Source: an uncultured virus (IMG/VR IMGVR_UViG_3300042308_000967)
Lineage: Duplodnaviria > Heunggongvirae > Uroviricota > Caudoviricetes
Direction: 5' to 3' (one strand)
IMG/VR virus record: IMGVR_UViG_3300042308_000967
Coordinates: 52,705 to 72,704 of that record
DNA: 20,000 nt
Positions within the stretch are counted from its first letter, which is position 1. Each line of letters opens with the position of its first letter. The notes under the pieces were generated by a model, which was not told the origin of the DNA, searched no databases, and saw only the letters and a program-made list of their open reading frames with translations. This document shows positions 2,773 to 19,162 of the stretch, piece after piece. The translations under genes were made by a program, and so were the position numbers.

Positions 2773-4422
2773 ATGGCAAACTTAAGAGCAAACAATGTCT
2801 GTGGAACTGACGGAAGAAACGCAATCACTGGGTCTGTTGAGTTTGATGGCAATGACTACTTAACAGAAACATCAGGTGCAGGTGGATTTAATGCATCGGA
2901 AGGAGACTGGACTATAGAAGCATGGATGTATTGCAATGATGCTTCTCAACCAGACATATTAGTTAATGGAACAACTTCATCTAGTGATAGATTTTATATT
3001 CAGTTTATAGGACAGACAATTTATATTGGAGATAATACTAATAATATTATAGCAATTGGTGGAGTAAAACAAGTAAACAGTTGGTTTCATATTACAGTAA
3101 CAAAAAATTCTTCAACATATAGAGCATTTATAAATGGTATTCAAATAGGTTCTTCTACAACTCCTTTAGCAAATTATAATTTAGATTCTTTGACAGTAGG
3201 TTATAGAGGAAGTCAAGGATATTATACAAAAGGTTTTATATCTAACCTTCGTATTATCAAAGGTACTGCACTCTACACACAAAACTTCATACCACCGACA
3301 AGAAAACTCATAAGACTTCCAGGTACTGTTCTCTTATGTTGCCAAGATAATGCTAGTGTTACAACAGAAGCAACAGGAAAGACGATTACTGCAAATGGAA
3401 ATCCAGCAGCAAGAAGATTCGTTCCACAAGTCGGTTCTGATGGTGGTTTAGTTTTTGATGGAACCACAAAGATAAACACACAAAACTACTTCTATCTTCC
3501 AACAGGAACGACAGAGCAACAGTTTCCAAACTTTGCTGGTGTTGATGCTGCAAGTGCTCGTGGAATTTTTGCGGGTGGATTTGCTACACCAGCAAATTAT
3601 AATACTGTTGATTATATAACGATTGAATCTACAGGAAATGCTTTTGACTTTGGAGATTTAACACAAACAAGAGGATATCTTTCTGCTTGTTCGTCGCCAA
3701 CTCGTGGTGTTTTAGGTGGTGGTTATGTTGGAGCAACTGTAAACACAATTGATTATGTAACTATTGCGTCAACAGGTGATGCAAAAGATTTTGGAGATTT
3801 GTTTACGGGAAGATATGGTTCTGGTGCTTGCTCTTCATCAACTCGTGGAATTTTTGGTGCTGGATATTTTACACCATCTATAGTAAACTCAATAAATTAT
3901 ATAACGATTGCATCCACAGGAAATGCAAATGACTTTGGAGATTTAACTGAATCTAGAGGATATATTGGATCTTGTTCGTCAAATACTCGTGGATTGTTTG
4001 GTGGAGGCAATCCTATTGTTAATACAATAGACTTTATTACTATATCAACAACTGGAAATGCACAAGACTTTGGAGATCTCACAAATGCAAAATCTGCACT
4101 TTCTGCTTGTTCCTCTTCAACTCGTGGAGTATTTGGTGGAGGTTCTACTCCAACATTTTTAAATACAATTGATTATGTAACAATTGCATCCACAGGAAAT
4201 GCACAAGATTTTGGAGATTTAACCACAACAAAATCTTTTAATTCTGCGTGTTCTTCAAATACTCGTGGAGTATTTGGTGGAGGTCAAAACCCATCTGGAT
4301 TTACAAATGAAATTGAATATATCACTATATTAACACAAGGAAATGCACAAGATTTTGGTGATTTAACAGTAGTAAGACAAGCAACTGGTGCTTGCTCCAA
4401 CGGTCACGGTGGTCTTGGATAA
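2773..4422 (+). CDS. Propeller paralogue 3: A-only anchor interrupted by a LamG/concanavalin-A-like domain, then six blades
   Basis: 549 aa. GSVEFDG..DYL, DWTIEAWMY, WFHITVTK, AFING and GFISNLRIIKGTALYTQNF are LamG-like hallmarks (~2830-3420). LPTGTTEQQ is at 3496-3522 and there is no RFNTD module. Tail CSNGHGGLG. Confidence 0.9.
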   Translation: MANLRANNVCGTDGRNAITGSVEFDGNDYLTETSGAGGFNASEGDWTIEAWMYCNDASQPDILVNGTTSSSDRFYIQFIGQTIYIGDNTNNIIAIGGVKQVNSWFHITVTKNSSTYRAFINGIQIGSSTTPLANYNLDSLTVGYRGSQGYYTKGFISNLRIIKGTALYTQNFIPPTRKLIRLPGTVLLCCQDNASVTTEATGKTITANGNPAARRFVPQVGSDGGLVFDGTTKINTQNYFYLPTGTTEQQFPNFAGVDAASARGIFAGGFATPANYNTVDYITIESTGNAFDFGDLTQTRGYLSACSSPTRGVLGGGYVGATVNTIDYVTIASTGDAKDFGDLFTGRYGSGACSSSTRGIFGAGYFTPSIVNSINYITIASTGNANDFGDLTESRGYIGSCSSNTRGLFGGGNPIVNTIDFITISTTGNAQDFGDLTNAKSALSACSSSTRGVFGGGSTPTFLNTIDYVTIASTGNAQDFGDLTTTKSFNSACSSNTRGVFGGGQNPSGFTNEIEYITILTQGNAQDFGDLTVVRQATGACSNGHGGLG

Positions 4423-4425
4423 ATA
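4418..4425 (+). promoter_or_regulatory. Putative T4-type late promoter (GATAAATA) overlapping the stop codon
   Basis: One mismatch to TATAAATA; followed by a GAGGT RBS-like sequence and ATG 4445. Confidence 0.55.
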
Positions 4426-4444
4426 CTGATAGAGGTATAAGAAT

Positions 4445-5422
4445 ATGTCCGCAATTCCATCAGGTGCAATGAGATTTAACTCCGACTCACAGAAGTTGGA
4501 GTATTGGGATGGTTCGCAGTGGGTTCAGGTCAGCACATTCTCTCCAAACCTGAATGGTGGTGCTCGTGGTGTTTTTGGTGGTGGTTATACACCAACATCT
4601 ATTAATACCATTGAATACATAACAATCTCATCTACTGGAAACACAACTGATTTTGGAGATTTGCAATCCGCAAAACCATATATGGGTTCTTGTGCTTCTT
4701 CTACTAGAGGAGTGTGGGCAGGAGGTTCTCCTGGAATTAATACTATTGATTACGTAACTATATCATCTACAGGTAATGCGCAAGACTTTGGGGATTTATT
4801 ATATACTGCAATATTTGTTGCTGGGTGTTCTAATACAACTCGCGGAATATTTGGAGGTGGAGAACCTGGACCAGGTTCTTCTACCAATACTATCAACTAT
4901 ATCACTATCGCATCAACAGGTAATGCAGTTGATTTTGGTGATTTATTAGTTGGTGGAAATAGAACAGCATCTTGTTCATCATCAACTCGTGGTGTCTTTG
5001 CTGGATTTTTTGGAGCACCTTCAGTAAATACAATAAATTTTATAACCATAGCAACTCTTGGAAATGCTTTTGATTTTGGAGATTTAACATCAGCAAACAG
5101 AGGTAGAGCAGGATGTTCAAATTCTACTCGTGGGTTGTTTGGAGGTGGAGATCCGGCACTTAATAACATAGATTTTATTACTATTGCAACCATTGGAAAC
5201 GCACAAGACTTTGGCGATTTACTTCAAGCGAGACAATATCCAGGAGCATGTTCTTCACCAACTCGCGGTGTCTTTGGGGGTGGATACTCCGGTCCAGGTA
5301 CAAAAACAAATATTATTGAATATGTGACAATATTAACACAAGGAAATGGAATAGATTTTGGAGACCTATCCTCTACAGCATCTTCTCCTGCAGGTCTCTC
5401 CAACGCTCACGGAGGTCTATAA
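4445..5422 (+). CDS. Propeller paralogue 4: B-only anchor, six blades
   Basis: 325 aa; begins MSAIPSGAMRFNSDSQKLEYWDGSQW; tail LSNAHGGL. Confidence 0.92.
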   Translation: MSAIPSGAMRFNSDSQKLEYWDGSQWVQVSTFSPNLNGGARGVFGGGYTPTSINTIEYITISSTGNTTDFGDLQSAKPYMGSCASSTRGVWAGGSPGINTIDYVTISSTGNAQDFGDLLYTAIFVAGCSNTTRGIFGGGEPGPGSSTNTINYITIASTGNAVDFGDLLVGGNRTASCSSSTRGVFAGFFGAPSVNTINFITIATLGNAFDFGDLTSANRGRAGCSNSTRGLFGGGDPALNNIDFITIATIGNAQDFGDLLQARQYPGACSSPTRGVFGGGYSGPGTKTNIIEYVTILTQGNGIDFGDLSSTASSPAGLSNAHGGL

Positions 5423-6579
5423 TGGGAATATTACGCACTAATACAATCTCTGGAATTGGGTCTACGGATGCGGGAACAGTCTTTCAGGGTGTCACAAGGT
5501 TTGATACACAAGGATACTTTGTTGCACCATCAGGAACGACAGACCAACGCAACGCTGGTATTACAACAACAGACGGAACTATTAGATTCAACACAGACTC
5601 ACAGAAGTTAGAGTTTTATGCTCAAAGTCAGTGGTGGGAGATGGTGATTGATACTCCTGCACTTGGTGTTGCTGCTGATACTGGTGCTGGTGCTCGTGGT
5701 GTTTTTGGTGGTGGATATACAACTACCCCAACATCTGCTAATTTAAATATAATTGATTATATTAATATCTCATCAACAGGTAATGGTCTAGACTTTGGAG
5801 ACTTAACACAAATAAGATATGCATTAATATCATGCTCATCTAATACCAGAGGATTATTTGCGGGAGGATTTGTTTCAGCAATTGGTGTTGTCAACACAAT
5901 AGATTATATAACATTCTCATCAACAGGAAATGCTTTAGACTTTGGTGATTTAACAGTAGCAAGAAGGTATGGATCTGCTTGTTCATCGTCTACTCGTGGA
6001 ATATGGGGCGGTGGAGGATATGCTCCATCTCCACAATCAAATGTATTAGATTATGTAACGATTGCATCTACAGGAAATGCTGTTACTTTTGGAACTTTAA
6101 GCGCAGCAAAATCTGGAACAGCTGCTTGCTCTTCATCAACTCGGGGAATATGGGCTGGTGGATATACTGGTCCAGCGGCATTAACTAATACTATTGATTT
6201 TGTAACTATATCAACACTTGGAAATGCTCAAGATTTTGGTGACTTAACACAAATCAGAGATACTGTGAATGCTTGCTCATCTCCATTTAGAGGTGTATTT
6301 GGTGGTGGTACAACTCCTACATCTGTATCTACAATAGACTCTATCATAATTGCAACACTAGGTAATGCTATTAGATTTGGAGACTTATCTTCATCCAGAT
6401 CTCATGCTTCTTCTTGCTCATCATCTACTCGTGGTGTTTTTGGTGGAGGTGGGTCTCCTTACCCAAACATTATTGAATACATTACTTTTACAAATGCAGG
6501 AAACGCGGTTGATTTTGGAGATTTACAATTACCACGTGGATTGGGTGGTGCCTGCTCCAACGCTCACGGAGGTTTATAA
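5422..6579 (+). CDS. Propeller paralogue 5: complete A+B anchor, six blades
   Basis: 385 aa; TAATG overlap with the previous gene; APSGTTDQR...GTIRFNTDSQKLEFY; tail CSNAHGGL. Confidence 0.92.
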   Translation: MGILRTNTISGIGSTDAGTVFQGVTRFDTQGYFVAPSGTTDQRNAGITTTDGTIRFNTDSQKLEFYAQSQWWEMVIDTPALGVAADTGAGARGVFGGGYTTTPTSANLNIIDYINISSTGNGLDFGDLTQIRYALISCSSNTRGLFAGGFVSAIGVVNTIDYITFSSTGNALDFGDLTVARRYGSACSSSTRGIWGGGGYAPSPQSNVLDYVTIASTGNAVTFGTLSAAKSGTAACSSSTRGIWAGGYTGPAALTNTIDFVTISTLGNAQDFGDLTQIRDTVNACSSPFRGVFGGGTTPTSVSTIDSIIIATLGNAIRFGDLSSSRSHASSCSSSTRGVFGGGGSPYPNIIEYITFTNAGNAVDFGDLQLPRGLGGACSNAHGGL

Positions 6580-6582
6580 AAA

Positions 6583-7683
6583 ATGACTATTTTACGCGCA
6601 AATACAATCTCTGGACTTGGAACTGATGGTCCAGTATTTGATGGAAGTTTAGAGTTTAATAGTCAGAACTATGTGATTCTACCAAAAGGAACCACAGGTG
6701 ATAGAGTTGGTCTTGGTTCAACCGCAGGAGCATTGAGATATAATACTGATAGTAATAAGGTAGAACTTTGGGATGGAAACCAGTGGGTAGAAGTTCAGTC
6801 AAGTCGTCCAGATCTGAATGGTGGTGCTCGTGGTATTTTTGCTGGTGGTTATACACCAACAGTTGTCAATACTATTGATTATATCACTATCTCATCTACA
6901 GGAAATGCAACTGACTTTGGAGATTTATTTCAAGCAAGATTTTTTAATGGTTCTTGTTCTTCAAGCATTCGTGGAATTTTTGCTGGTGGTTCTACTCCTT
7001 CAAATGTTAATACAATAGACTTTATAACAATATCTTCAACGGGTAATGCCGCTGATTTTGGAGATTTAACTGAAATAAAACAGGCATTGAATGCTTGTTC
7101 TTCAAATATTCGTGGTATTTTTGCTGGCGGTTTTGTTACTCCAGTCAATACAAACACAATAGATTATATTACTATTTCATCTATAGGAAATGCAGTAGAC
7201 TTTGGAGATTTAACACAAGCAAGAAGATATCCTGCTGCTTGCTCTTCTGCAGTTCGTGGTATTTTTGGAGGAGGTTATACTTCAACACAGATAAACACTA
7301 TAGACTTTATCACAATATCAACTCTCGGAAATGCACAAGATTTTGGAGATTTAACATTGGCGAGAAGTAGTCTTTCTGCTTGCTCTTCTGCAGTTCGTGG
7401 TGTTTTTGGAGGAGGACTTTCAAATACAAACACGATAGATTATATTACTATATCAACACTAGGAAATGCTGCAGACTTTGGTGACTTAACACAAGTAAGA
7501 CATAATCTTGCTGCGTGTTCCTCAAGTATTCGCGGCGTCTTCGGTGGTGGTTATGCTCCAGGAAATACAAACACAATAGATTATATTACAATAGCAATAC
7601 AAGGAAATGCAATTGACTTTGGAGACCTAACTCAAGCAAGAAGAGGTCTTGCAGGTCTCTCCAACGCTCACGGTGGGTTGTAA
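6583..7683 (+). CDS. Propeller paralogue 6: complete A+B anchor, six highly homogeneous blades
   Basis: 366 aa; LPKGTTGDR...GALRYNTDSNKVELWDGNQW; tail LSNAHGGL. Confidence 0.92.
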   Translation: MTILRANTISGLGTDGPVFDGSLEFNSQNYVILPKGTTGDRVGLGSTAGALRYNTDSNKVELWDGNQWVEVQSSRPDLNGGARGIFAGGYTPTVVNTIDYITISSTGNATDFGDLFQARFFNGSCSSSIRGIFAGGSTPSNVNTIDFITISSTGNAADFGDLTEIKQALNACSSNIRGIFAGGFVTPVNTNTIDYITISSIGNAVDFGDLTQARRYPAACSSAVRGIFGGGYTSTQINTIDFITISTLGNAQDFGDLTLARSSLSACSSAVRGVFGGGLSNTNTIDYITISTLGNAADFGDLTQVRHNLAACSSSIRGVFGGGYAPGNTNTIDYITIAIQGNAIDFGDLTQARRGLAGLSNAHGGL

Positions 7684-7711
7684 AAACCGACCAAGCATCC
7701 TATAATAAATA
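7678..7711 (+). promoter_or_regulatory. Putative composite promoter: sigma70-like TTGTAA-N17-TATAAT overlapping late-type AATAAATA
   Basis: TTGTAA 7678-7683, 17-nt spacer, TATAAT 7701-7706, AATAAATA 7704-7711, and a second TATAAT at 7719-7724. Lies in the largest intergenic gap, ahead of the four-gene cassette. Confidence 0.55.
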
Positions 7712-7738
7712 ACACAGTTATAATAAAATTGAACTGAT

Positions 7739-8668
7739 ATGACGGAAAAAAGTTCTGCTATTACTTCTGTAGACATTACACCAGGCGCAGAGATTTCAGT
7801 TACAACGCTTAAGAAAGACCTAGCACAACTTGCATCTGGTCCTCTGCCACAAGAATACAAGGGAATGTTGACTCATATTGAAGAGACACTTCCTGCAACA
7901 CAAGCAGCGTGTGATAATTTCTATAAGTCACACTCACAGATGATGACTGTGACTTTGGACATCACAGACCTTACACCAATTCGTAGCATCAAGCATACAC
8001 TTGCAGCGATTGAAAGAACGAAGAGTGCTCTTGCAGAAGCACAAATCAATCGTCGCAAAAACGAAATCAAAATCAAAAAGAAGCAAAGAGAGATTGATGC
8101 TTGTGAAGATGACCTAGACCGTGAGGAACTAGAGATTGATATGATTGAGTTGATGAACAATAATATGAATATTGAAAACTCAATGAAGGGTGCAATTCGT
8201 AAGATGTCGTTCCTTATGACTCAATATCGTTCTGTCCTGGACCATATTGGTAAGGACCATATTACTGAAGAAGATTATGAACGTGAAGAGAAACGCTACC
8301 ACGTTATGACTGCACTGAAGCAAGCACTGAACTCTGCACGTCCTCGTGGTGGTGTGATTGATGAAGGCAACTCTATCTACCTGTTTGATATTGGGGTGAA
8401 TGTTGCACACGCACAAGCAGAAGTCTTCAATTATCTGAAGATTGAAAATGAACTGATTTCACAAGGACAAGCACCATCACACGAAATGACGATGGAGTGG
8501 TTAGAGAAGTGTGCTGATAAGTTCCAAGATTGTGCAGAACGTTTTGCAGAAAGTCGTGGATTTAAGGTTCTGGATGAGAAGTCTCTTGCTTGGCCTGAAG
8601 TTCCACCACTCCTTCCATCCACAGTTGACCAAGAGTTTGCTAAACTGAAAGCATCCGAAGAGGAGTGA
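7739..8668 (+). CDS. Hypothetical alpha-helical/coiled-coil protein
   Basis: 309 aa, rich in charged residues, with a heptad-like segment (IRSIKHTLAAIERTKSALAEAQINRRKNEIKIKKKQREID...IENSMKGAIRKM); no recognisable catalytic motif. Confidence 0.85.
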   Translation: MTEKSSAITSVDITPGAEISVTTLKKDLAQLASGPLPQEYKGMLTHIEETLPATQAACDNFYKSHSQMMTVTLDITDLTPIRSIKHTLAAIERTKSALAEAQINRRKNEIKIKKKQREIDACEDDLDREELEIDMIELMNNNMNIENSMKGAIRKMSFLMTQYRSVLDHIGKDHITEEDYEREEKRYHVMTALKQALNSARPRGGVIDEGNSIYLFDIGVNVAHAQAEVFNYLKIENELISQGQAPSHEMTMEWLEKCADKFQDCAERFAESRGFKVLDEKSLAWPEVPPLLPSTVDQEFAKLKASEEE

Positions 8669-8672
8669 TTTT

Positions 8673-9392
8673 ATGCATTTGGTAATTGGAACTCCGATGT
8701 ACGGAGGAATGTGTACAAGTGAATATACGCAATCAATGATTCACTTGTCTGAAGCAGCAAATAAGTCTAATGTAAAATTTACCACTATCTTTCTTGGTAA
8801 TGAGTCTCTAATTCAAAGAGGTCGCAATACGATTGCTCATCACTTTATGAGTATTCCTGATGCAACTCATTTGCTCTTTATTGATGCAGACCTAAAGTTC
8901 CGCGTGGAAGATGTGGTGAAGATGATTAAAGCAGATAAAGGTTTAATCATTGGTCCTGTTCCTCTGAAAGGTTATAACTGGGAAGAGATTCGTAACAGAG
9001 CACTTGCAGGAGAACCAGAGATTCATAGAACTGGTGGTGTATTCAATATCAATCATCTTCCTGGCATTGTTATGGAAGATGAAGAAACACCATTTGAGAT
9101 TGAGCACGGTGGAAATGCAATGATGATGATTCGTCGTGATGTTTTTGAGGAACTTGCACCTCATACTGATTATTATACGAATGGTGGTGCATCACTACCG
9201 GATGGTGTAGAAATTAAAGATTACTTCCGTGTTGAAGTAGACCCAGAGAAGAAGCATCTTCTTTCAGAGGATTATTTCTTCTGCCACTCATATCGTAAGA
9301 TTGGTGGTAAGGTCTGGTGTGCTCCATTCGTTCAAGTTGGCCACTTCGGATCCCATCTGTTCAATGGTCATTATGCTCGTTCATATAAATAA
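8673..9392 (+). CDS. GT-A fold (GT2-like) glycosyltransferase-like protein
   Basis: 239 aa; N-terminal strand LVIGTP, RGRN, DxD motif in HLLFIDADL, MMIRRDVFE, SEDYFFC, late GH; RBS GAGGAG at 8660-8665. Confidence 0.75.
   Translation: MHLVIGTPMYGGMCTSEYTQSMIHLSEAANKSNVKFTTIFLGNESLIQRGRNTIAHHFMSIPDATHLLFIDADLKFRVEDVVKMIKADKGLIIGPVPLKGYNWEEIRNRALAGEPEIHRTGGVFNINHLPGIVMEDEETPFEIEHGGNAMMMIRRDVFEELAPHTDYYTNGGASLPDGVEIKDYFRVEVDPEKKHLLSEDYFFCHSYRKIGGKVWCAPFVQVGHFGSHLFNGHYARSYK
9384..9391 (+). promoter_or_regulatory. T4-type late promoter (TATAAATA)
   Basis: Exact consensus overlapping the stop of the GT gene. Followed by ACTAAAAA (same context as 17261), a GAGGA RBS at 9404-9408 and ATG 9411. Confidence 0.75.
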
Positions 9393-9410
9393 CTAAAAAA
9401 CTAGAGGATA

Positions 9411-9974
9411 ATGGCAGCACAACATCCAATTATTAAATATCGTTTAACCAGAGAAGGAAGAATTCCAGAGTATCTTTGCACTGATCCAAGAGCATTTGCT
9501 GGAATGTATGGTGTAGACACTAATACTCCTGGATTTATTCCTCGCTGGTTGTCACCACAAGAAACTCAATATCTTGGAATGGGTTGTGGTGAAATTGATC
9601 CAGAACAAGGTGCTCCTTCTGGTGTATCAGTAGTTGAAACCAAAGCAGAACTACAAACTTATATCACTGGAATCAGTACTGCTTGGACTGTAGATACTCA
9701 AGTTCTTGTTGGTATTAAAACTGAAACCATTACTTCTTCTGGCATTACTACCTCACCAGAAGTTACTTTTGATCCAGGTCCAGGTGTAGTTGTTGGTGTT
9801 AATACTTCATATACTGATAGTGTAGAGAAGATTGATATTGATGGTAATGTTGCAATTACCACTCATAGAACTTGGAGAACAACTGATACACTGCAAAATC
9901 CATTTGATCCTGTTGCAGCGACTAATGAACTCTGGGGTATTTACGAAGTAGTAAACGGAATTACAACTGGTTGA
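9411..9974 (+). CDS. Hypothetical protein, Thr/Val/Gly-rich C-terminal half, possibly virion-associated
   Basis: 187 aa ORF with late promoter and RBS; several G-[IV]-x-T motifs (GISTA, VGIKT, GITTS, VGVNT, GITTG). Confidence 0.8.
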   Translation: MAAQHPIIKYRLTREGRIPEYLCTDPRAFAGMYGVDTNTPGFIPRWLSPQETQYLGMGCGEIDPEQGAPSGVSVVETKAELQTYITGISTAWTVDTQVLVGIKTETITSSGITTSPEVTFDPGPGVVVGVNTSYTDSVEKIDIDGNVAITTHRTWRTTDTLQNPFDPVAATNELWGIYEVVNGITTG

Positions 9975-9983
9975 TAAAACTTT

Positions 9984-10778
9984 ATGAAAACTTATTATTT
10001 TGATTGTGGGCTTCCACGTTCGGGGTCCACACTTTTGACGGCTTTGCTAAATCAAAATCCTCAAATACACGCAGGCACATTGTCTCCTGTATTTGAGGTT
10101 ATGTATTATACGAACGACAGACTACAAGGAGAGCAAGCACAAGCATTTCCAAAACCACAAATCTTTAAGAAGATGGTTGGAGATGTCATTGATACTTATT
10201 ATTCTGATGTAGAAGAACCTGTGGTCATTGATAAGTGTCGTGCTTGGCCTGCTCATATTGACTTAATCAAACAATACATCACACCAGAACCAAAGATTCT
10301 CTGCACAGTCAGACATCCACTGGAGATACTTGCATCATTTATTGAACTGATTAACAACAGTCGTTCAGTATCTTTTATTGATAAAGCACTGTTACAACAA
10401 GGAATGTTTATTACGGACGATACAAGATGTGAGTTTATGATGAATCCTGGTGGTATTGTATGGGAGTCAATGAATGCACTTGCGACTGCATTTAGAAACA
10501 ATCAGACGCAACACATTCACTTTATTCAGTATGATGACTTGGTGAGTGACCCCAAGAGAGTAATGCAAGGTATTCATTCGTTCTTAAGAATGAAACCTTA
10601 TGAGTATGACTTTGAGAACGTAGAGAATAAGTATAGAGAGAAAGATAGTGAAGTTTATGGACTTCCTACGATGCACGAAGTTCGCCATAAAGTAGAGAAG
10701 AAGTCAAGACACTATTCAGAAGTATTAAGTGAGGAAGTGATAAATAAGTATAAGGATTTAGATTTTTGGAACAGATAA
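9984..10778 (+). CDS. PAPS-dependent sulfotransferase family protein
   Basis: 264 aa; 5'-PSB loop GLPRSGSTLL, IDK, 3'-PB motif ILCTVRHPLEILAS, and IQYDDLVSDP, all typical of the sulfotransferase fold. Confidence 0.88.
   Translation: MKTYYFDCGLPRSGSTLLTALLNQNPQIHAGTLSPVFEVMYYTNDRLQGEQAQAFPKPQIFKKMVGDVIDTYYSDVEEPVVIDKCRAWPAHIDLIKQYITPEPKILCTVRHPLEILASFIELINNSRSVSFIDKALLQQGMFITDDTRCEFMMNPGGIVWESMNALATAFRNNQTQHIHFIQYDDLVSDPKRVMQGIHSFLRMKPYEYDFENVENKYREKDSEVYGLPTMHEVRHKVEKKSRHYSEVLSEEVINKYKDLDFWNR
10739..10746 (+). promoter_or_regulatory. Possible T4-type late promoter (GATAAATA) inside the sulfotransferase 3' end
   Basis: One mismatch to consensus, about 35 nt upstream of ATG 10782, which starts the second propeller block. 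Confidence 0.4.
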
Positions 10779-10781
10779 TAA

Positions 10782-11912
10782 ATGTCTGAAGCAAGGATTA
10801 ACCGAATATCTAATGAAAAGGGAGATGGTGGTCCTTCTATATCAGGAATCACAACTTTTTCTGGTTTAAACTATTTCGTACCACCAAAAGGAACCACGGC
10901 AGAGAGACCTTCAGATTGTCCGCCTGGTTCCATTCGTTTTAATACTGATAGTGCTCATTTAGAATACTTTGATGGACTGCAGTGGTTAGAGTTTGAAGCA
11001 TTCAATAATGAGTTAGGTGTGAATGGTGCTTTAGGAACTCGTGGCGTTTTTGCAGGAGGATATGGATTTACACCAACTCCTGCTATTGTAACCGGAATAG
11101 AATATATAACACTTTCTACATTGGGGGATGGTATAACATTTGGAGAATTAACTGTAGGAACTTTTTTTGCGGGTGCAGGAGCATCATCAACTCGCGGAAT
11201 ATTTGGAGGTGGACGTGCAGCAGGACTGGGACAAAATGTAATCAATTACATAACATTTTCTTCAACTGCAAATGCATTAGATTTTGGGGATCTTACAGTT
11301 GCTAGACAAGAAAATCACGGTTTTTCTAATGCAACAAGAGGGTTATTTGCCGGAGGATATAGATATTCTCCAAATGCATATGTAAATATTATTGATTATG
11401 TAACTATTGCATCAACAGGAGATGCACAAGATTTTGGTGATATAAATTTTTTAGGGGGTTATAAATGTGCTTGTGCATCTTCAACAAGAGGAGTTACAGC
11501 AGATTCTGGTAATACTCTTGAATATGTAACAATATCTTCAACAGGAAATGCTATTGACTTTGGAGATTTAAATGTAAGTTTAACCAAGGGAACTTCTTGC
11601 TCAAATTCTACCAGAGGATTATTTGCTGCAGGACTTGTTCCAGGAGTATCAAATTTAATAGATTTTATTACTATTGCATCTACTGGAAATGCAACTGACT
11701 TTGGAGACTTAACTATTAGTCGTCATAGTCCTGCTGCAGCATCATCCGCAACTCGTGGTGTTTTTGGTGGTGGAGTTACACCTAGTGGTAGTAATGTTAT
11801 TGATTGTGTGTCTATATTAACTGCAGGAAATGCAATAGATTTTGGAGATTTGGTTCGTTATGGTGGAAGAAGAGCACATACTGCTTGTTCTAACGGTCAC
11901 GGAGGTCTATAA
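10782..11912 (+). CDS. Propeller paralogue 7: complete A+B anchor, six blades
   Basis: 376 aa; PPKGTTAERP...GSIRFNTDSAHLEYFDGLQW; tail CSNGHGGL. Confidence 0.92.
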   Translation: MSEARINRISNEKGDGGPSISGITTFSGLNYFVPPKGTTAERPSDCPPGSIRFNTDSAHLEYFDGLQWLEFEAFNNELGVNGALGTRGVFAGGYGFTPTPAIVTGIEYITLSTLGDGITFGELTVGTFFAGAGASSTRGIFGGGRAAGLGQNVINYITFSSTANALDFGDLTVARQENHGFSNATRGLFAGGYRYSPNAYVNIIDYVTIASTGDAQDFGDINFLGGYKCACASSTRGVTADSGNTLEYVTISSTGNAIDFGDLNVSLTKGTSCSNSTRGLFAAGLVPGVSNLIDFITIASTGNATDFGDLTISRHSPAAASSATRGVFGGGVTPSGSNVIDCVSILTAGNAIDFGDLVRYGGRRAHTACSNGHGGL

Positions 11913-13048
11913 TGTCTGAATTTAAGTCATCAAGTTTTAGAAACGAAGACAACAGTGGTGCTCCTGATATTGTTGGAGTCTCTACATTCACTTCACCATA
12001 TTACTTTGTTCCACCATCAGGCACCACAGCAGAGAGACCTTCTGGTGATGGATTAGCACCAGGTATGTTGAGGTTTAATACTGATATTGGAAGACTGGAA
12101 GTATGGAGAGGAGACCATTGGGCAACGATACTTGGTCAAGAAAGTGCTCCTCTTGGTGCTCGTGGAGTAATTGCTGGGGGTGACACTACTGGAGCAGGTG
12201 CAGATACAAATGTAATTCAATATATAACACTCTCAACCACCGGAAATTCTGCTGATTTTGGTGATTTAATAAGAAATCAAAGACACGTTTGTGGAAATGT
12301 TGCGTCAACAACAAGAGGGTTATTTGGAGGTGGATATAAAAGTGGTAGTGCAGGAACAAATACTATCGAATATATAACAATATCTACTCTTGGCAATTCA
12401 ATTGATTTTGGAGACCGTGCAGGTGGTTCTACTTGGTCTTGGGGTGGACTTTCTAATTCAACAAGAGGATTATGGGTTGGAAGTAGTGGAATTCCCGGAA
12501 ATAGTAATGTTATAGATTTTATTACAATTGCATCTACAGGAAATTCTCAAAGTTTTGGTAATCATTTAATTACAAGTAGAGATGTTGCTTGTTTGTCAAG
12601 TAATACCAGAGGAATTCTTGCTGGTGAATATACTAATGATAATACTATAGGATATGTTACTATTGCATCAACAGGAAATGCAGTTGATTTTGGTGATTTA
12701 ACATTTTCAAATCCATCAGGTAATACTTACAATAGAGCGACTGGTTCAAATGGAGTTCGTGGAGTATTTGGACCTCATGGAGAAACTCCAACTGGAAAAT
12801 ATCAATATATTACAATTTCAACATTAGGTAATAGCGTAAATTTTGGTGATGCTTTGTCATCTATTGCTTCTGCAACAGGATCAAGTAGTCCAACAAGAAT
12901 GTTTAGTTGTGGCGGAAATTCACCAGCAATAACTAATTCAATTGATTATATAACTATAACCTCTACAGGTAATGCACAAGATTTTGGTGATTTGATTACT
13001 ACTGCTACCACTGCCGGCGCATTAACCAACGGTCACGGAGGTTTATAA
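11912..13048 (+). CDS. Propeller paralogue 8: complete A+B anchor, six divergent blades
   Basis: 378 aa; TAATG overlap; PPSGTTAERP...GMLRFNTDIGRLEVWRGDHW; tail LTNGHGGL. Confidence 0.92.
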   Translation: MSEFKSSSFRNEDNSGAPDIVGVSTFTSPYYFVPPSGTTAERPSGDGLAPGMLRFNTDIGRLEVWRGDHWATILGQESAPLGARGVIAGGDTTGAGADTNVIQYITLSTTGNSADFGDLIRNQRHVCGNVASTTRGLFGGGYKSGSAGTNTIEYITISTLGNSIDFGDRAGGSTWSWGGLSNSTRGLWVGSSGIPGNSNVIDFITIASTGNSQSFGNHLITSRDVACLSSNTRGILAGEYTNDNTIGYVTIASTGNAVDFGDLTFSNPSGNTYNRATGSNGVRGVFGPHGETPTGKYQYITISTLGNSVNFGDALSSIASATGSSSPTRMFSCGGNSPAITNSIDYITITSTGNAQDFGDLITTATTAGALTNGHGGL

Positions 13049-13051
13049 GAA

Positions 13052-14149
13052 ATGTCTAAACTCAACATTAGCAGATTAACCAACGAGAACGAGGACGGCT
13101 CACCAAAGATTACTGGTATTACTACCTTTTCTTCTACTGCATTTTTAGAAGCACCAAAAGGAACCACAGCACAAAGACCAACAAATCCACTACCAGGTGC
13201 AATTCGTTTTAATACTGATGGTGGACATTTGGAATATTTTACTGGTGAGTTCTGGGATGAAGTTCTTGTTGCTAATAATAGTTTAGATGGTGGTAATCGT
13301 GGTGTTTTTGGTGGGGGATTAACAACACCAGGTTTAGGTGCAAATAATACAATTGAATTTGTAACTATCTCAACAATAGGAAATGCAATAGATTTTGGCG
13401 ATTTAACTGTTGCTAGATATGCACTAGCGTCATCCTCATCATCAACTAGAGGATTATTTGCTGGCGGTATTCCACAACCAGAATATAATGTAATTGACTA
13501 TTTAACATTTTCTTCAACAGGAAATGCTTTAGATTTTGGAGATTTATTATCTGGTATAAGTCAACTTATGTCTTGTTCTTCATCAACAAGAGCAATTTTT
13601 GCTGGAGGATACACTCCAACCATTAATGTAATTCAATATGTAACAATTGCATCAACAGGAAACTCTGTTGATTTCGGAGACTTAACAACAGTCAGAAGAA
13701 ATGCAGCGGCGTGTTCATCATCAACTCGTGGTCTATTTGGTGGAGGTATTACGCCAGGAACAACAAATACAATAGATTATATTACAATATCAACATTAGG
13801 AAATGCTATTAATTTTGGTAATTTAACTCTAGCAAGAAATAACCTTGCGGGATGCTCAAATTCTACTCGCGGATTATTTGGTGGTGGTTCTGGCGTATCT
13901 AATGTGATTGATTATGTGACTATTGCAGCAACAGGAGATGCAACTGACTTTGGTGATTTAACCGTTGCAAGAAGATATTTGGCGTCTTGTTCTTCATCAA
14001 CTCGTGGTTTATTTGGTGGTGGCTATAGTCCAACAACGAATGTAATTGATTATGTAACAATATTATCAACAGGAAATGCACTTGACTTTGGAGATTTAAC
14101 AAGTTCTGGTTGGTTAGGTGCCTGCTCCAACGGTCACGGAGGACTATAA
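13052..14149 (+). CDS. Propeller paralogue 9: complete A+B anchor, six blades
   Basis: 365 aa; APKGTTAQRP...GAIRFNTDGGHLEYFTGEFW; tail CSNGHGGL. Confidence 0.92.
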   Translation: MSKLNISRLTNENEDGSPKITGITTFSSTAFLEAPKGTTAQRPTNPLPGAIRFNTDGGHLEYFTGEFWDEVLVANNSLDGGNRGVFGGGLTTPGLGANNTIEFVTISTIGNAIDFGDLTVARYALASSSSSTRGLFAGGIPQPEYNVIDYLTFSSTGNALDFGDLLSGISQLMSCSSSTRAIFAGGYTPTINVIQYVTIASTGNSVDFGDLTTVRRNAAACSSSTRGLFGGGITPGTTNTIDYITISTLGNAINFGNLTLARNNLAGCSNSTRGLFGGGSGVSNVIDYVTIAATGDATDFGDLTVARRYLASCSSSTRGLFGGGYSPTTNVIDYVTILSTGNALDFGDLTSSGWLGACSNGHGGL

Positions 14150-14152
14150 ATA
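14145..14152 (+). promoter_or_regulatory. T4-type late promoter (TATAAATA)
   Basis: Exact consensus overlapping the stop at 14147-14149; GGAG at 14160-14163; ATG 14175. Confidence 0.75.
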
Positions 14153-14174
14153 TCACTATGGAGAATAAACAATA

Positions 14175-15170
14175 ATGGCAGCAGCACCAGGAGCATTACG
14201 TTTTAATACAGACTCGCTGAAGATGGAACTCTACGATGGAAATCAGTGGGTAGAAATTGTTGCGACTTCTCCTGAAGCACAGACTGGTGGTGCTCGTGGT
14301 GTTTTTGGTTCTGGTGGAACAGATCCATCTCCTATATTTAATGTGATTGATTATGTTACAATATCAACCACAGGAAATGCACAAGATTTTGGAGATTTAC
14401 TTGGAGCATATACAATCCGATCTTCTTGTTCATCTTCAACCAGAGGATTATTTGCAGGTGGTCAAAATGGTCCTGCGCCAGGGTATACGAATACAATAGA
14501 GTATATTACTATTTCATCTACAGGAAACTCACAAGATTTTGGCGATTTAACTCAAGTAAAAACTTCTTTAGGTTCTTGTTCAAACTCAACTAGAGGAATA
14601 TTTGGTGGAGGAGTTTTATTTTCTGCGCCTACCACCTTTCAAATTAATGTAATTGAATATGTAACAATATCTTCAATCGGAAACGCTATAGATTTTGGCG
14701 ACTTATCACACACAAATGCAAATCAAGTGTCAGCATTATCATCATCAACTCGTGGAATTTTTGGTGGTGGAGCTCCAAACGTAAATATAATAGAATTTAT
14801 AACAATATCAACTACAGGAAATTCTGCTGACTTTGGAGATTTAACTGTTGCTCGTCATGGGCACGAAGGAATGTCCAATTCAATTCGTGGACTATTCGCT
14901 GGTGGAGCAAGTCCAGATAATGTGATTGATTATATCACAATAGCAGCACTAGGAAATGCAATTGATTTTGGGGATTTGACAAGTGCAAGAAGAAATAGTT
15001 GCGGAACATCCTCTTCAACTAGAGCAGTAATAGCGGGATCAGATTATCCTTCTACAAATGTAATTGATTATGTGACGATTATGACTACAGGAAATGCAAT
15101 TGATTTTGGAGATAGAACTGGAAATTATGGTGGTAGATGTGGTCTCTCCAACGGTCACGGAGGTTTATAA
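14175..15170 (+). CDS. Propeller paralogue 10: B-only anchor, six blades
   Basis: 331 aa; begins MAAAPGALRFNTDSLKMELYDGNQW; tail LSNGHGGL. Confidence 0.92.
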   Translation: MAAAPGALRFNTDSLKMELYDGNQWVEIVATSPEAQTGGARGVFGSGGTDPSPIFNVIDYVTISTTGNAQDFGDLLGAYTIRSSCSSSTRGLFAGGQNGPAPGYTNTIEYITISSTGNSQDFGDLTQVKTSLGSCSNSTRGIFGGGVLFSAPTTFQINVIEYVTISSIGNAIDFGDLSHTNANQVSALSSSTRGIFGGGAPNVNIIEFITISTTGNSADFGDLTVARHGHEGMSNSIRGLFAGGASPDNVIDYITIAALGNAIDFGDLTSARRNSCGTSSSTRAVIAGSDYPSTNVIDYVTIMTTGNAIDFGDRTGNYGGRCGLSNGHGGL

Positions 15171-15173
15171 GAA

Positions 15174-16202
15174 ATGTCTGAATTTAGAGTAGACCAAATC
15201 ACAAATCAGTCAGGCTCAAGAGGACCAGACATTGCAGGTATTACAACTTTCTCTGCGACTTCTGGGATGTTGATGCCAAGTGGAACAACAGAATATCGTG
15301 GAGGAAGAGGAAGAGGTTTGTTTGGTGGTGGTTATACATTTCCAGCACCAACAACTAATTTCAATATAATTGATTACGTGACCATCGCAACACTAGGAAA
15401 CGCATTAGATTTTGGAGATTTAGCACAACAAGGAACAAATAATAGTATAGGTGCCTGTGCATCATCAACTCGCGGAGTTTGGGGTGGAGGAAGTGAAGAA
15501 CCATCAACAAATTCAAATGTAATTCAATTTGTAACAATATCTTCAACAGGAAACTCTTTTGATTTTGGGGATTTAACCTTTGCAAGAAGAAGTGCAGGTG
15601 CTTGTTCTTCATCAACTCGTGGGATATGGGCAGGAGGAAGAACGCCAACGTCTCAAAATGTAATTGATTATATAACTATCTCAACTCTTGGAAATGCATC
15701 AGTTTTTGGAGATTTAAATAGAGGTCATAGTAGTAATACTAGTGTGGGTGCTTGTTCATCACCAACTCGCGGAATATTTGCAGGAGGTTATAGTCCAAAT
15801 GTCAACACAATTACTTTTATAACAATTGCAAATACTGGAAATGGTCAATATTTTGGAGATTTAACAGTACCAAGAAGCAGTGGAGGATGTTGCTCAAATT
15901 TAACTCGTGGAATATTTGCAGGAGGTAATAGTACCAATGTGATTGATTATTTTACTATTGCCTCTTCTGGAAATGCAATAGATTTTGGAGATTTAACATA
16001 TTCTAGTTCTCAAATATCTGCCTGTTCAAATTCAAGTCGTGGAATTTTTGCTGGTGGGTATTTTGCACCCGGAGGGGCAAATATTATAAGTTTTGTGACT
16101 ATTGCTTCTACAGGAAACGCTTCAGACTTTGGAGACTTAACTCAAGGAAGAGCAATAAGAAACGCAGGTTGCTCTGACGCTCACGGAGGTTTAGGAGACT
16201 AA
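15174..16202 (+). CDS. Propeller paralogue 11: A-only anchor, six blades
   Basis: 342 aa; MSEFRVDQITNQ...GPDIAGITTF...MPSGTTEYR runs straight into GGRGRGLFGGG; tail CSDAHGGLGD. Confidence 0.92.
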   Translation: MSEFRVDQITNQSGSRGPDIAGITTFSATSGMLMPSGTTEYRGGRGRGLFGGGYTFPAPTTNFNIIDYVTIATLGNALDFGDLAQQGTNNSIGACASSTRGVWGGGSEEPSTNSNVIQFVTISSTGNSFDFGDLTFARRSAGACSSSTRGIWAGGRTPTSQNVIDYITISTLGNASVFGDLNRGHSSNTSVGACSSPTRGIFAGGYSPNVNTITFITIANTGNGQYFGDLTVPRSSGGCCSNLTRGIFAGGNSTNVIDYFTIASSGNAIDFGDLTYSSSQISACSNSSRGIFAGGYFAPGGANIISFVTIASTGNASDFGDLTQGRAIRNAGCSDAHGGLGD

Positions 16203-16203
16203 T

Positions 16204-17265
16204 ATGCCTATCAACGAAAACGCACCACTTTCAGTCACACCAGGAGCAATCAGATTTAACACTGACTCTATGAAGTTAGAGTATTATCGTGGTGGTCCTG
16301 TAGGATTTGGAACCACTACAACGACTGGTGAATGGGTTAATCTTACAACAGACTCACCAGACATTCAGACTGGTGGTGCTCGTGGGTTGTTTGCGGGTGG
16401 ATATACAAATAGTCCATTTGGATTTACAAATATTATTGAATATATTACAATATCTACAACGGGAAATGCAATTGATTTTGGCGATTTAAGTAATGCAAGA
16501 CAAGATCCTCACGGAACAGCATCAAATACTCGTGGTATTTTTGCAGGTTCAAGTGGTCCACAAAATAATATAATTGAATTTGTAACCATATCATCAACAG
16601 GAAATTCACAGTCTTTTGGACAATTAACAAGACCTTCAATATATCACTATGGACATAGCAATCAAACAAGAGGACTTTACTGTGGAGGTTTTCAATCACC
16701 AACAACAGTTCTTAATACAATTGATTATATAACAATTGCTGCAACAGGAAATGCAGTAGATTTTGGAGACCTCACAGTAGCAAGAGACACGCATAGTTCA
16801 TTTGCATCTTCAACAAGGGGAATATGTGCGGGAGGGAGAACTGTTGTACCATCAACATTTACTAATCTAATTGATTTTGTAACTATTTCATCTTTGGGTA
16901 ATGCTGCAGATTTTGGCGATTTATATGTTACGGCAAGATTTGCTTCAGGATGTTCTAACTCAATCAGAGGTGTGATTGCTGGCGGTTATAATCCTGCAGT
17001 CACAAATACAATTCAATATATTACAATTGCATCATTAGGAAATTCTCAAGACTTTGGTGATTTAACCGTTGGTCGTATTGCACTATCATCAGCAGCATCA
17101 CCAACTCGTGGAGTGTTTAGAGGTGGAGAAACTCCTACTATGCAAAATGTTATTGATTATGTGACTATTATGAGTGCAGGAAATGCAATTGATTTTGGTG
17201 ATGCAACAACCACCATCACTTCAGTTTCTGGAGGTTGCTCCAACGGCCACGGTGGTCTTGGATAA
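16204..17265 (+). CDS. Propeller paralogue 12: B-only anchor, six blades
   Basis: 353 aa; TPGAIRFNTDSMKLEYYRG...GEW; tail CSNGHGGLG. Confidence 0.92.
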   Translation: MPINENAPLSVTPGAIRFNTDSMKLEYYRGGPVGFGTTTTTGEWVNLTTDSPDIQTGGARGLFAGGYTNSPFGFTNIIEYITISTTGNAIDFGDLSNARQDPHGTASNTRGIFAGSSGPQNNIIEFVTISSTGNSQSFGQLTRPSIYHYGHSNQTRGLYCGGFQSPTTVLNTIDYITIAATGNAVDFGDLTVARDTHSSFASSTRGICAGGRTVVPSTFTNLIDFVTISSLGNAADFGDLYVTARFASGCSNSIRGVIAGGYNPAVTNTIQYITIASLGNSQDFGDLTVGRIALSSAASPTRGVFRGGETPTMQNVIDYVTIMSAGNAIDFGDATTTITSVSGGCSNGHGGLG

Positions 17266-17268
17266 ATA
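17261..17268 (+). promoter_or_regulatory. Putative T4-type late promoter (GATAAATA)
   Basis: ATAAATAACTAAAAA context identical to the promoter at 9384; upstream of ATG 17285. Confidence 0.65.
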
Positions 17269-17284
17269 ACTAAAAAGTACGAAG

Positions 17285-18166
17285 ATGTCTGTTATTAAGG
17301 TAAACAATATAACAAATAGAGATGGGACATCAGGACCAGTAATTGCAGGGATTACTACTGTGTCCACAACTTCTCATATGGTTGTTCCGACTGGTAATAC
17401 AGGACAGAAAGTTGCATTAGCACCGGATCCTTATATTAACAATTTGGTTCTTGCACTACCTTTTAATAGTGAGAGTGTTTTTGATGATGTGAGTCCAAAA
17501 AGTAAAGGAACTCCAGCAGTACAAGGAAGTTTTGGTTCATCAACTTCAAGTCTTCCATTTGGAATTACTGGAGTTACTACAACTTCAAGTGGTATTGTCA
17601 CTTTCTCCAAATATTATGGAACAAGTTGTTATTTTGACGGAGTTGGAGACCATTTAAAATTTGCGGGGTCTGGAGATTTTCAGTATGCAGCAAATGATTT
17701 TACAATTGAATTTTGGTGGTATCCAACTAATACTACAAGACAAGCATTATATCACGGAAGTTTTGGTGCGGATTACTCTATAGGCATTGACTATAATTCA
17801 ACAGGTGCAAACAAGTTAGGAATATGGGCAAGTTCAAATGGGTCTTCTTGGAATTTGATTAACGCAGATGGTGGTGGAAATGGTATTTGTAGCACTGCAG
17901 TTCCACAAAATCAATGGAATCACATTGCTTTTGTTAGAAATGGAACTACCTGGAGATTATATTTAAATGGAATTGTAGATTGTACAGTTTCTAATTTATC
18001 GGGAAGTGTTGATGTTACTGCAACTGATGTTCAGGCAATTGGTGCTTGGTGGAATTCTGAAACAGCAATGAGTGACTTATATGGTTATTTGCAAGACTTT
18101 AGAATTTACAATGGTGTAGCAAAGTACACATCAAACTTTACACCTCCTACACAGATTGCATTATAA
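17285..18166 (+). CDS. A-only anchor plus LamG/concanavalin-A-like domain protein (no propeller); putative lectin-like virion protein
   Basis: 293 aa; N-terminus homologous to paralogues 7-9 and 11 (IKVNNITN...GPVIAGITT...VPTGNT). LamG hallmarks SCYFDG.GDHL, DFTIEFWWY, WNHIAFVRNG...LYLNG, GYLQDFRIYNGVAKYTSNF. Confidence 0.88.
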   Translation: MSVIKVNNITNRDGTSGPVIAGITTVSTTSHMVVPTGNTGQKVALAPDPYINNLVLALPFNSESVFDDVSPKSKGTPAVQGSFGSSTSSLPFGITGVTTTSSGIVTFSKYYGTSCYFDGVGDHLKFAGSGDFQYAANDFTIEFWWYPTNTTRQALYHGSFGADYSIGIDYNSTGANKLGIWASSNGSSWNLINADGGGNGICSTAVPQNQWNHIAFVRNGTTWRLYLNGIVDCTVSNLSGSVDVTATDVQAIGAWWNSETAMSDLYGYLQDFRIYNGVAKYTSNFTPPTQIAL

Positions 18167-18169
18167 GTT

Positions 18170-19162
18170 ATGCCAGTACCATCAGGAGCACTACGATTTA
18201 ATTCAGATTCTAGAAAGCTAGAATACTACAACGGGGAAGCATGGTGGCAGATTGATAGTTTCACACCAGACTCTGCGACTGGTGGTGCTCGTGGTGTATT
18301 TGGTGGTGGTTATATCAAAAGTCCTACGAGTGTAAACACAAACACAATTGATTATATTACAATATCAACTACAGGAAATGCAATTGACTTTGGCGATTTA
18401 ACAAATGCCAGAAGAGCAGGGTCTTCTACTTTTGCATCTAGCACTCGTGGATGTTTTTCAAATGGATTTTCAACTGCTGCAGAAAACAGAATAGATTATA
18501 TTACCATTTCATCAACAGGAAATGCACAAGATTTTGGGGACACACTGACTGCATTTTATTCTGCAACAGGTTTAGCAAATTCAACTAGAGGAATAATTGC
18601 TGGTGGAGTTCCTTCGTCTAATGTAATTCAATATGCAACTATAGCATCAACAGGAAATACTGTTGATTTTGGTGATACTAGTTTTGCTGGTGGATATAAA
18701 AGTGCTTGTGCATCAACAACTCGTGGAATTATTGCAGGTGGAAGTTCTTCAAATGTAATTGAATTTATTACTATATCCACATTAGGAAATGCATCAGACT
18801 TTGGAGATTTGACTCAAGCAAGAAGTGCTTTAGCAGGAGGTTCAAACTCAACAAGAGGGATATTTGGTTCTGGGTATACTCCAACTCTATCAAATACAAT
18901 TGATTACATTACAATTGCTGCAACAGGAAATGCAACCGATTTTGGCGATTTACTAGCAGTATATGGATTTCCAAGTTTTTGTGCTTCATCAACTCGTGGC
19001 GTGTGGGCAGGTGGATATTCACCAACACCAGGAACTGCAGTAAATGTTATTCAATATGTATCTATTATGTCTACAGGAAATGCAATTGACTTTGGTGATA
19101 TGTCTACAGCAGCAGGACTTGCTCAAGGTGGTGGTCTCTCTAATGGTCACGGCGGTCTCTAA
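18170..19162 (+). CDS. Propeller paralogue 13: B-only anchor, six blades
   Basis: 330 aa; begins MPVPSGALRFNSDSRKLEYYNGEAW; tail LSNGHGGL. Confidence 0.92.
   Translation: MPVPSGALRFNSDSRKLEYYNGEAWWQIDSFTPDSATGGARGVFGGGYIKSPTSVNTNTIDYITISTTGNAIDFGDLTNARRAGSSTFASSTRGCFSNGFSTAAENRIDYITISSTGNAQDFGDTLTAFYSATGLANSTRGIIAGGVPSSNVIQYATIASTGNTVDFGDTSFAGGYKSACASTTRGIIAGGSSSNVIEFITISTLGNASDFGDLTQARSALAGGSNSTRGIFGSGYTPTLSNTIDYITIAATGNATDFGDLLAVYGFPSFCASSTRGVWAGGYSPTPGTAVNVIQYVSIMSTGNAIDFGDMSTAAGLAQGGGLSNGHGGL

Follow-up and report, generated by a model that had tools for sequence, protein, structure and literature searches.

The window analysed here is a 20,000-nucleotide (nt) stretch of DNA, positions 52705-72704 of the 72,704-base viral record IMGVR_UViG_3300042308_000967 (its last 20 kb), from the tail-fibre region of an uncultured marine phage. 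It carries an array of 14 paralogous genes whose products are built from an N-terminal anchor (A), a short sheet (B) and a head. In three adjacent gene pairs, the anchor and the sheet are carried by separate genes, with the break in the same short linker each time, and this split is strongly conserved in other viral contigs. On balance, we favour the view that the chains with A only and the chains with B only co-assemble.

All 14 paralogues lie on the plus strand, spaced -1 to 30 nt apart, and the sole interruption is a group of four unrelated genes at 7739-10778. Open reading frames (ORFs) were taken to begin at the first ATG, GTG or TTG after a stop; the A motif was defined as P-x-G-[TG]-T-x-x-R, and the B motif as G-x-[ILM]-[RF]-[FY]-N...LE...G..W. 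A and B are continuous in seven genes (3..1361 and those beginning at 1392, 5422, 6583, 10782, 11912 and 13052), three genes (2773, 15174 and 17285) are A-only, and four (4445, 14175, 16204 and 18170) are B-only. The ORFs, motifs and gene classes described in an earlier note, made from the sequence of the window, were all found where it had placed them. The genes (named below by their first position), A tails and two junctions are as follows, with residues given as amino acid (aa) numbers:

3..1361, plus strand: enters from upstream; a long extension at the N-terminus, A tail (aa 106) and B (aa 120) both internal, kelch propeller.
1392..2771, plus strand: a long extension at the N-terminus, A tail internal at aa 115, a weaker B (GSTRFNQD; B profile E 3.9e-6), kelch propeller.
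2773..4422, plus strand: A-only; cap, LamG inside A, rest of A, six-blade kelch head; no B.
3496..3522, plus strand: A tail of 2773, LPTGTTEQQ; the first blade follows directly.
4423..4444, plus strand: 22-nt spacer between 2773 and 4445; conserved ATAAATA...AGAGGTA, a stop codon plus a GAGG ribosome-site-like box.
4445..5422, plus strand: B-only; starts MSAIPSGAMRFNSD..., three-stranded B sheet, kelch head.
5422..6579, plus strand: intact A, B and kelch.
6583..7683, plus strand: intact A, B and kelch; the family is also found fused with LamG (P0058 family) and split (L084:9812).
10782..11912, plus strand: intact A, B and kelch.
11912..13048, plus strand: intact A, B and kelch.
13052..14149, plus strand: intact A, B and kelch; used for the first fold, confident only at aa 31-72 (A tail and B).
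14175..15170, plus strand: B-only, upstream of A-only 15174; position kept in relatives.
15174..16202, plus strand: A-only; A (aa 1-43) with a kelch head directly after.
15273..15299, plus strand: A tail of 15174, MPSGTTEYR; aa 28-44 are the modelled interface with 16204.
16204..17265, plus strand: B-only, 1 nt past 15174; aa 7-22, 25-28, 42 and 44 are the modelled interface.
17285..18166, plus strand: A-only; A (aa 1-43) and LamG (PF13385, aa 118-278), without a kelch head.
17384..17410, plus strand: A tail of 17285, VPTGNTGQK.
18164..18172, plus strand: TAA GTT ATG, that is, the stop of 17285, one codon and the start of 18170, in one frame; identical in four related loci.
18170..19162, plus strand: B-only; B sheet (aa 8-27), six-blade kelch propeller, confidently modelled.

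In intact genes, B starts 8-11 residues after A, and the two are N-terminal in five genes and behind a longer N-terminal extension in two; in 5422, 6583, 10782, 11912 and 13052, A is at aa 34-36 and B at aa 49-52. B-only genes start 4-13 residues ahead of G-x-[ILM]-R-F-N and, since ORFs were called from the first start codon after a stop, cannot be extended upstream. A joint alignment revealed that A-only genes exit the anchor, and B-only genes begin, within one short linker after P-x-G-T-T-x-x-R, which bears out the earlier claim of a single break point; the three A-tail spans named with that claim encode the peptides listed above. For 2773, described before as A followed by a head, an A tail followed by a propeller is indeed present, with the refinement that a LamG domain also sits inside A: a cap (MANLRANN..., aa 1-25) is followed by LamG (PF13385, aa 26-163) and by the rest of A (aa 221-249). 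In 15174, P35, S36, G37, R42, G43 and G44 are invariant among nine orthologues, and A is near identical among orthologues whose heads are only ~50% identical. This high conservation, together with the N-terminal position, suggests that A holds the fibre on the virion. The gene order agreed with the earlier description as well, each A-only gene lying directly ahead of a B-only gene, and 14175 directly ahead of 15174. When the labels of the 14 genes were shuffled within two blocks (200,000 shuffles), all three A-only genes stood directly ahead of B-only genes in 0.8% of cases.

Conservation of the A-only/B-only adjacency, proposed with the note as a check, was found to be strong in both related and more distant viral contigs. 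Contigs with 17285 orthologues at 50-53% identity have identical junctions and retain the order B-only, A-only, B-only, A-LamG, B-only. In more distant contigs (G001-G003, L055, L063, L065 and others), the pairing is kept even where the heads differ: the 15174 orthologue of L055 has a non-kelch head, the 2773 orthologue of L063 has no LamG, and a B-only gene still comes next in both. For a census, A and B profiles built from the window genes were run on the ORFs of 126 loci plus the window (ATG-started ORFs of at least 90 aa on the plus strand of the locus; nested ORFs, ORFs with X, and loci L001-L003 were dropped). The unique genes comprised 76 B-only, 60 A-only, 26 intact, 38 with internal B only, and one with A and B far apart. 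For 57 A-only genes, another gene lay downstream within 200 nt: this next gene was B-only in 49 cases and a second A-only gene followed by a B-only gene in eight, with no other arrangement observed; the 49 direct pairs formed 26 clusters at 60% N-terminal identity. Seen from the other side, an upstream neighbour is present for 66 B-only genes, and 62 of these adjoin an A-only gene, 49 from behind and 13 others from directly ahead (three of these 13 follow a 2773-type gene missed by the A profile). Three of the remaining four are distant intact forms missed by the A profile, and one, in L093, lies behind a gene cut at the locus end, with no downstream gene called. Sequencing or assembly errors, or recent pseudogenes, could be suspected, as the data are metagenome contigs and one chain (P0012, below) is a possible chimera. 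The same breaks, with intact ORFs, are however seen in many independent contigs whose heads are only ~50% identical, and, because the split is thus conserved, an artefact is excluded for practical purposes.

In some related arrays (L066, reverse strand, ORFs 11115-12248 and 13294-14406; also L068, L070, L094, L098 and L099), a glycine-rich N-terminal extension (MGYGGGGSGG...) sits on one A-only and one B-only paralogue, of which the window has neither; these arrays have six A-only and six B-only genes.

The tail motif is as well conserved in the A-only genes as in the intact ones. P35, G37, T39 and R42 were present in all 26 intact genes; the corresponding numbers were 45, 46, 45 and 42 among 46 A-only genes with a kelch head, and 14, 14 and 12 among 14 A-only genes with another head, position 42 being R in eight and K in five of the latter. 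The 6583-type anchor occurs in three states: intact, as in 6583 itself; fused, in A-LamG-B-kelch chains of ~600 aa; and split, as A-kelch followed by B-kelch (L084:9812). At least 66 of the 120 matches listed are fused forms (A motif, B motif and at least three blades), and 12 more of these matches have B and blades where the A pattern failed; B follows directly after the LamG C-terminus in fused forms (KYTANFTPPERIAEIGVGFKAGQLRYN). Since one family occurs intact, fused and split, we conclude, from sequence comparison, that two-headed chains are real and that the A|B linker is the place where the extra head goes. By the same comparison, the 17285/18170 pair is the split counterpart of the fused A-LamG-B-kelch architecture. 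P0012, a single-member 514-aa A-kelch-B-kelch chain whose first ring is not followed by HGGL and whose C-terminus is odd, may be a natural fusion or an assembly chimera.

The fold of the divided part was examined in models of single chains. In the 13052 model, aa 31-72 had predicted local distance difference test (pLDDT) values of 79-87, with strands at aa 51-54, 59-63 and 68-70. This segment superposes on TSP3 of phage CBA120 (5w6f_A 583-623; Z 5.1, root-mean-square deviation 1.1 Å, 39 aa, 26% identity) and on Mtd (1yu0_A 5-49; Z 4.5, root-mean-square deviation 2.3 Å, 42 aa), the Z scores being modest because the domain is small. Domain D4 of TSP3 is described, in the available text, as a three-stranded sheet with a linker ahead of it, three copies of which make a beta-prism II with a core of asparagine, tryptophan and proline (PMC6517402), and the beta-prism of Mtd is said there to promote an obligatory trimer (PMC6328139). 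Because it superposes on TSP3 D4 and the Mtd N-terminus, the modelled A tail with B belongs to a known class of small trimerising units, which the split divides into leading segment and sheet. The two known structures share with it a length of ~40 residues and a three-stranded antiparallel sheet that comes after a GTTxxRP-like segment; they differ in that segment and sheet are in one chain, at the C- or N-terminus, whereas in the window the unit is internal and, in three pairs, divided between two genes. A Pfam search of five N-terminal fragments of the anchor, with E values up to 10 allowed, found no family. The best PDB sequence match of the anchor was Gp49 of 9d83 (E 0.22), with the same word order SGTTAQRP...G...FDTT...W, and nothing relevant on 9D83 was found in the literature.

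In the models of both 13052 and 18170, B is a three-stranded antiparallel sheet of ~30 aa per chain. The strands of the 18170 sheet (aa 8-11, 16-20 and 25-27) were modelled at pLDDT ~90 without any A. The earlier note had regarded B as an incomplete half, with A-only and B-only chains complementing each other in trans to rebuild the domain. That B is incomplete is contradicted by this full modelled sheet, and the rebuilding of a domain from halves goes too far. The proposal is supported in part: a pairing of the two chains is in line with the conserved adjacency, the break inside one structural module, the retained tail motif, the complex model described below and the commonness of two-headed A-LamG-B-kelch chains. 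As the B sheet is complete without A, docking of an arm on a prism fits better than rescue of a domain.

We propose that the array encodes trimeric receptor-binding fibres composed of anchor A (~43 aa), the trimerising beta-prism sheet B (~30 aa) and a kelch or LamG head. In intact genes, the end of A (P-x-G-T-T-x-x-R) would rest on the B sheets, and the two would form one unit. In split pairs, an extra head would be inserted at the A|B junction together with a stop and a start, which would make the A-only chain an anchor with head 1 and the B-only chain a prism with head 2. Three A tails would then dock on the prism made by three B-only N-termini, and the resulting branched 3+3 fibre, held on the virion by A, would display two kinds of head.

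A complex of three copies of 15174 (aa 1-46) and three copies of 16204 (aa 1-62), that is, of N-terminal fragments without heads, was modelled using an orthologue alignment for each (7 and 9 rows). The note had proposed this pair for such a check; the 3:3 model placed the A tail on the B sheets, and it passed its controls, with scores of 0.86, 0.86 and 0.87 versus 0.33 for the best of three controls. At least 83% of contacts agreed between runs, and the partner pLDDT was at least 70. In the predicted interface, aa 28-44 of A lie on aa 7-22, 25-28, 42 and 44 of B, and each tail contacts two B copies; threefold packing of three B copies is predicted by this 3:3 model only. The pLDDT of the A chain was 86 with B and 45-50 with unrelated partners, while that of the B partner was 67 without A and 70-72 with A. 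The model supports, as a prediction, the binding of A to B, and we infer from it both chain binding and the 3:3 ratio.

Several points weigh against co-assembly. The 49 pairs are not independent events, since related arrays share descent. The mark applied to the score of the 3:3 model (116 of 157 solved complexes attained it, as did 2 of 215 mismatched pairs) comes from a calibration from which six chains with shallow alignments differ; the three controls include no non-cognate A/B pair; and the halves of a split unit may pass such a model through their likeness to intact units. Of the 67 chains of the fused A-LamG-B family, 56 have S, 9 have A and 2 have T at position 39, and R42 is absent; because T39 and R42 are lost there, the contact between A tail and B is not universal, a point that carries little weight since the family is one clade, and that cuts both ways. 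The window has three A-only and four B-only genes, and the 14175-type B-only genes stand upstream, not downstream, of an A-only gene. Lastly, B-only proteins may fold and trimerise alone, because B is modelled complete without A and TSP3 D4 is described, in the available text, as a sheet alone after a linker.

The last three of these points would suit a reading in which the two chains are independent proteins. The A|B linker would then be a module boundary for cassettes (head, stop, start) inserted by recombination; B-only proteins would trimerise via their own prism and be held on the virion by another route, or not be virion parts at all; and adjacency would be inherited gene order. The confident B sheet without A, the self-contained trimerising sheet that TSP3 D4 is described to be (PMC6517402), and the position of 14175-type genes behind an intact gene are all in keeping with it. 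The kelch domain, too, sits behind many unrelated N-termini, which makes the family highly modular. We nevertheless rate independent proteins as rather unlikely, given that each of the 57 A-only genes is followed by a B-only gene, either directly or after one further A-only gene, that 62 of 66 B-only genes adjoin an A-only gene (49 behind and 13 in front), that the pairing survives head swaps, that A-only genes retain the tail motif and that the complex model passes its controls.

The B prism might also bind the head or C-terminus of the upstream protein rather than its A tail, in an end-to-end or head-to-prism joint, for which the gp36-gp37 joint of the T4 long fibre is the model. Such a joint would agree with the fused forms, in which B comes straight after the LamG C-terminus and T39 and R42 are relaxed, and with the order of parts, which is always head 1, then B. 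The heads and C-termini of the upstream proteins, however, vary (kelch ...HGGLGD, LamG ...PPTQIAL, others ...KGRYT) while the N-termini of B stay alike, the constant part of the upstream gene is A, and the model, built from fragments without heads, puts the A tail on B. We consider this joint improbable, and retain docking of the A tail on the B prism as the preferred arrangement.

The junctions between A-only and B-only genes are tight, with a 1- or 4-nt overlap, a 1- or 3-nt gap, or a conserved spacer of 21-23 nt. Of the 49 related junctions between an A-only and a B-only gene, 19 have the 2773-type spacer of this length (..ATAAATA..AGAGGTA..ATG), which may contain a ribosome site or a word like that of a late promoter. 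At the 17285/18170 junction, the sequence ...KYTSNFTPPTQIAL, stop, V, MPVPSGALRFN stands against ...KYTANFTPPERIAEIGVGFKAGQLRYN in the fused chain, and the 15174/16204 junction is GAC TAA T ATG. Read-through or frameshifting at such junctions could fuse A-only and B-only ORFs into one product, and the 17285/18170 pair, in one frame with TAA and one codon between, at a junction identical in four related loci, would lend itself to it; fused homologues also exist. Since the frame is the same at only 15 of 49 junctions, and eight of these, with 21-nt spacers, have a second in-frame stop, recoding is very improbable; besides, B-only genes all start at an ATG of their own, many of them with a GAGG box, and no slippery site was seen at 15174/16204.

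If A tails dock on B prisms as proposed, the trimer of 15174 A might accept either 14175 or 16204, or mixed B trimers. We regard this putative plug-and-socket mixing as doubtful. Were it true, about a dozen genes would let one phage assemble two-headed fibres in a combinatorial set, and new heads would be gained by inserting head, stop and start at the A|B linker.

In donor-strand complementation of chaperone-usher pili, a segment of one chain on the sheet of another joins subunits; the pilin fold is incomplete and needs the donated strand, and a linear polymer is formed. In contrast, the B sheet is modelled here as complete without A, and the proposed assembly would be a threefold trimer, not a linear polymer. 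Among phages, CBA120 TSP1-4 and DT57C LtfA/LtfB are described, in the available text, as several heads on one attachment point, with one protein virion-bound via another (PMC8825819, PMC7506556, PMC10713586), and DT57C LtfA as giving beta-strands to LtfC sheets (PMC10713586). The joints of these phages are dedicated globular N-terminal domains or a collar protein, whereas the joint proposed here would be a small prism unit cut in two, which is found in 26 pair clusters, occurs unsplit as well, and is known from genes and a model. Literature searches on tail-fibre propeller paralogues and strand complementation returned no description, supplements aside, of a split anchor. Branched fibres are already known, and what sets the present case apart is the proposed joint, a 40-residue prism unit cut between arm and sheet. 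The host range of abundant marine myophages depends on a large, variable fibre region about which little is understood. If the proposal is true, cutting a trimerising unit between arm and sheet would be a recurrent simple rule for placing two heads on one anchor; it would account for the way in which these phages widen their range of heads, and would offer a compact natural connector (~45 plus 35 residues) for two-headed fibres in laboratory phages.

Heads across the paralogues are six-bladed kelch propellers or LamG domains. A Pfam scan of the paralogues revealed LamG (PF13385) alone, in 2773 (55.2 bits) and 17285 (70.4 bits; gathering cut-off 27.6 bits), and, with E values up to 0.01 allowed, none of the 13 kelch paralogues was matched by the Pfam Kelch models. 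The repeat head matched only PHROG 19111, whose function is not known, and the anchor matched several unnamed PHROGs. The AlphaFold2 model of 18170, based on a 74-sequence alignment, had a pLDDT of 93.4 and a predicted template modelling (TM) score of 0.87, and consists of six four-stranded blades in a closed ring. Foldseek matched it to KLHL12 (6v7o_B; E 3.5e-17, TM 0.75/0.87) and also to Keap1 kelch domains. The beta-helix and leucine-rich-repeat matches of the first 13052 model (30 sequences) are meaningless, as the pLDDT of its propeller part was 43.

Kelch ORFs of the window and related loci end within 12 residues of HGG[LI] in 158 of 162 cases. The idea that a kelch head must end its chain, and thereby forces the split, was rejected, since double-propeller chains with internal HGGL exist (P0002, P0010, P0049). 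Double kelch propellers of ~630 aa (P0001-P0005, P0010 and others) occur behind unrelated N-termini (MANYPQLD..GVW.., MSNSGKVWD..), with HGGL between the rings. Many A-only kelch genes end in SD[SA]HGGLG, and the B-bearing ones mostly in SN[GA]HGGL.

The viral record is ~35% complete and ends where the window ends; the GC content of the window is 36-40% throughout. Upstream of the window there are tail-fibre and baseplate PHROG matches, including a 1818-aa protein that matches phrog_529 (E 0) and proteins of 844 and 760 aa that match fibre-family PHROGs. A search for near-identical DNA against cultured phages gave no match, and a protein search gave weak partial matches only, in the cyanophages S-SKS1, S-TIM4 and P-RSM4; matches in the protein atlas were viral clusters only, none of them in a named family. 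By gene content, the region resembles the host recognition cluster of T4-like cyano- and pelagimyophages, a variable island between VrlC and gp14 that, in the available text, is described as holding fibre, glycosyltransferase-type and radical-SAM genes and concanavalin-A-like domains (Zaragoza-Solas et al. 2020, PMC7029224). In the record studied here, fibre PHROGs lie upstream, and a sulfotransferase and a phrog_1574 protein lie inside the array; kelch arrays and split anchors are not mentioned in the available text of that account (PMC7029224).

Scans of the window for sigma-70 promoters and terminators revealed no excess over shuffled sequences. The T4-type late promoter word TATAAATA occurs twice in the window versus 1.6 expected, which is not evidence for such promoters; one copy is at 14145-14152, just ahead of 14175.

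Upstream on the same contig, an integrase-like gene (L001:16336-17202; phrog_1, E 6e-38) and a homing-endonuclease-like gene (L001:1751-2728; phrog_655) are placed amid the tail-fibre genes, directly ahead of the kelch array. Use of recombination sites at the A|B junctions by the integrase-like gene was considered and rejected, the only DNA repeats found in the window being the blades, at 60-76% identity. The four-gene cassette that breaks the array at 7739-10778 codes for a 309-aa protein without known function, a phrog_1574 protein, a 187-aa protein without known function and a sulfotransferase (PF13469), and lies at the same place in G001-G003. Directly after the array, on the opposite strand, there is a 2OG-Fe(II) oxygenase gene (19163-19744, minus strand; PF13640), followed by the end of a gene for a SPASM-domain protein (19731-20000, minus strand; PF13186).

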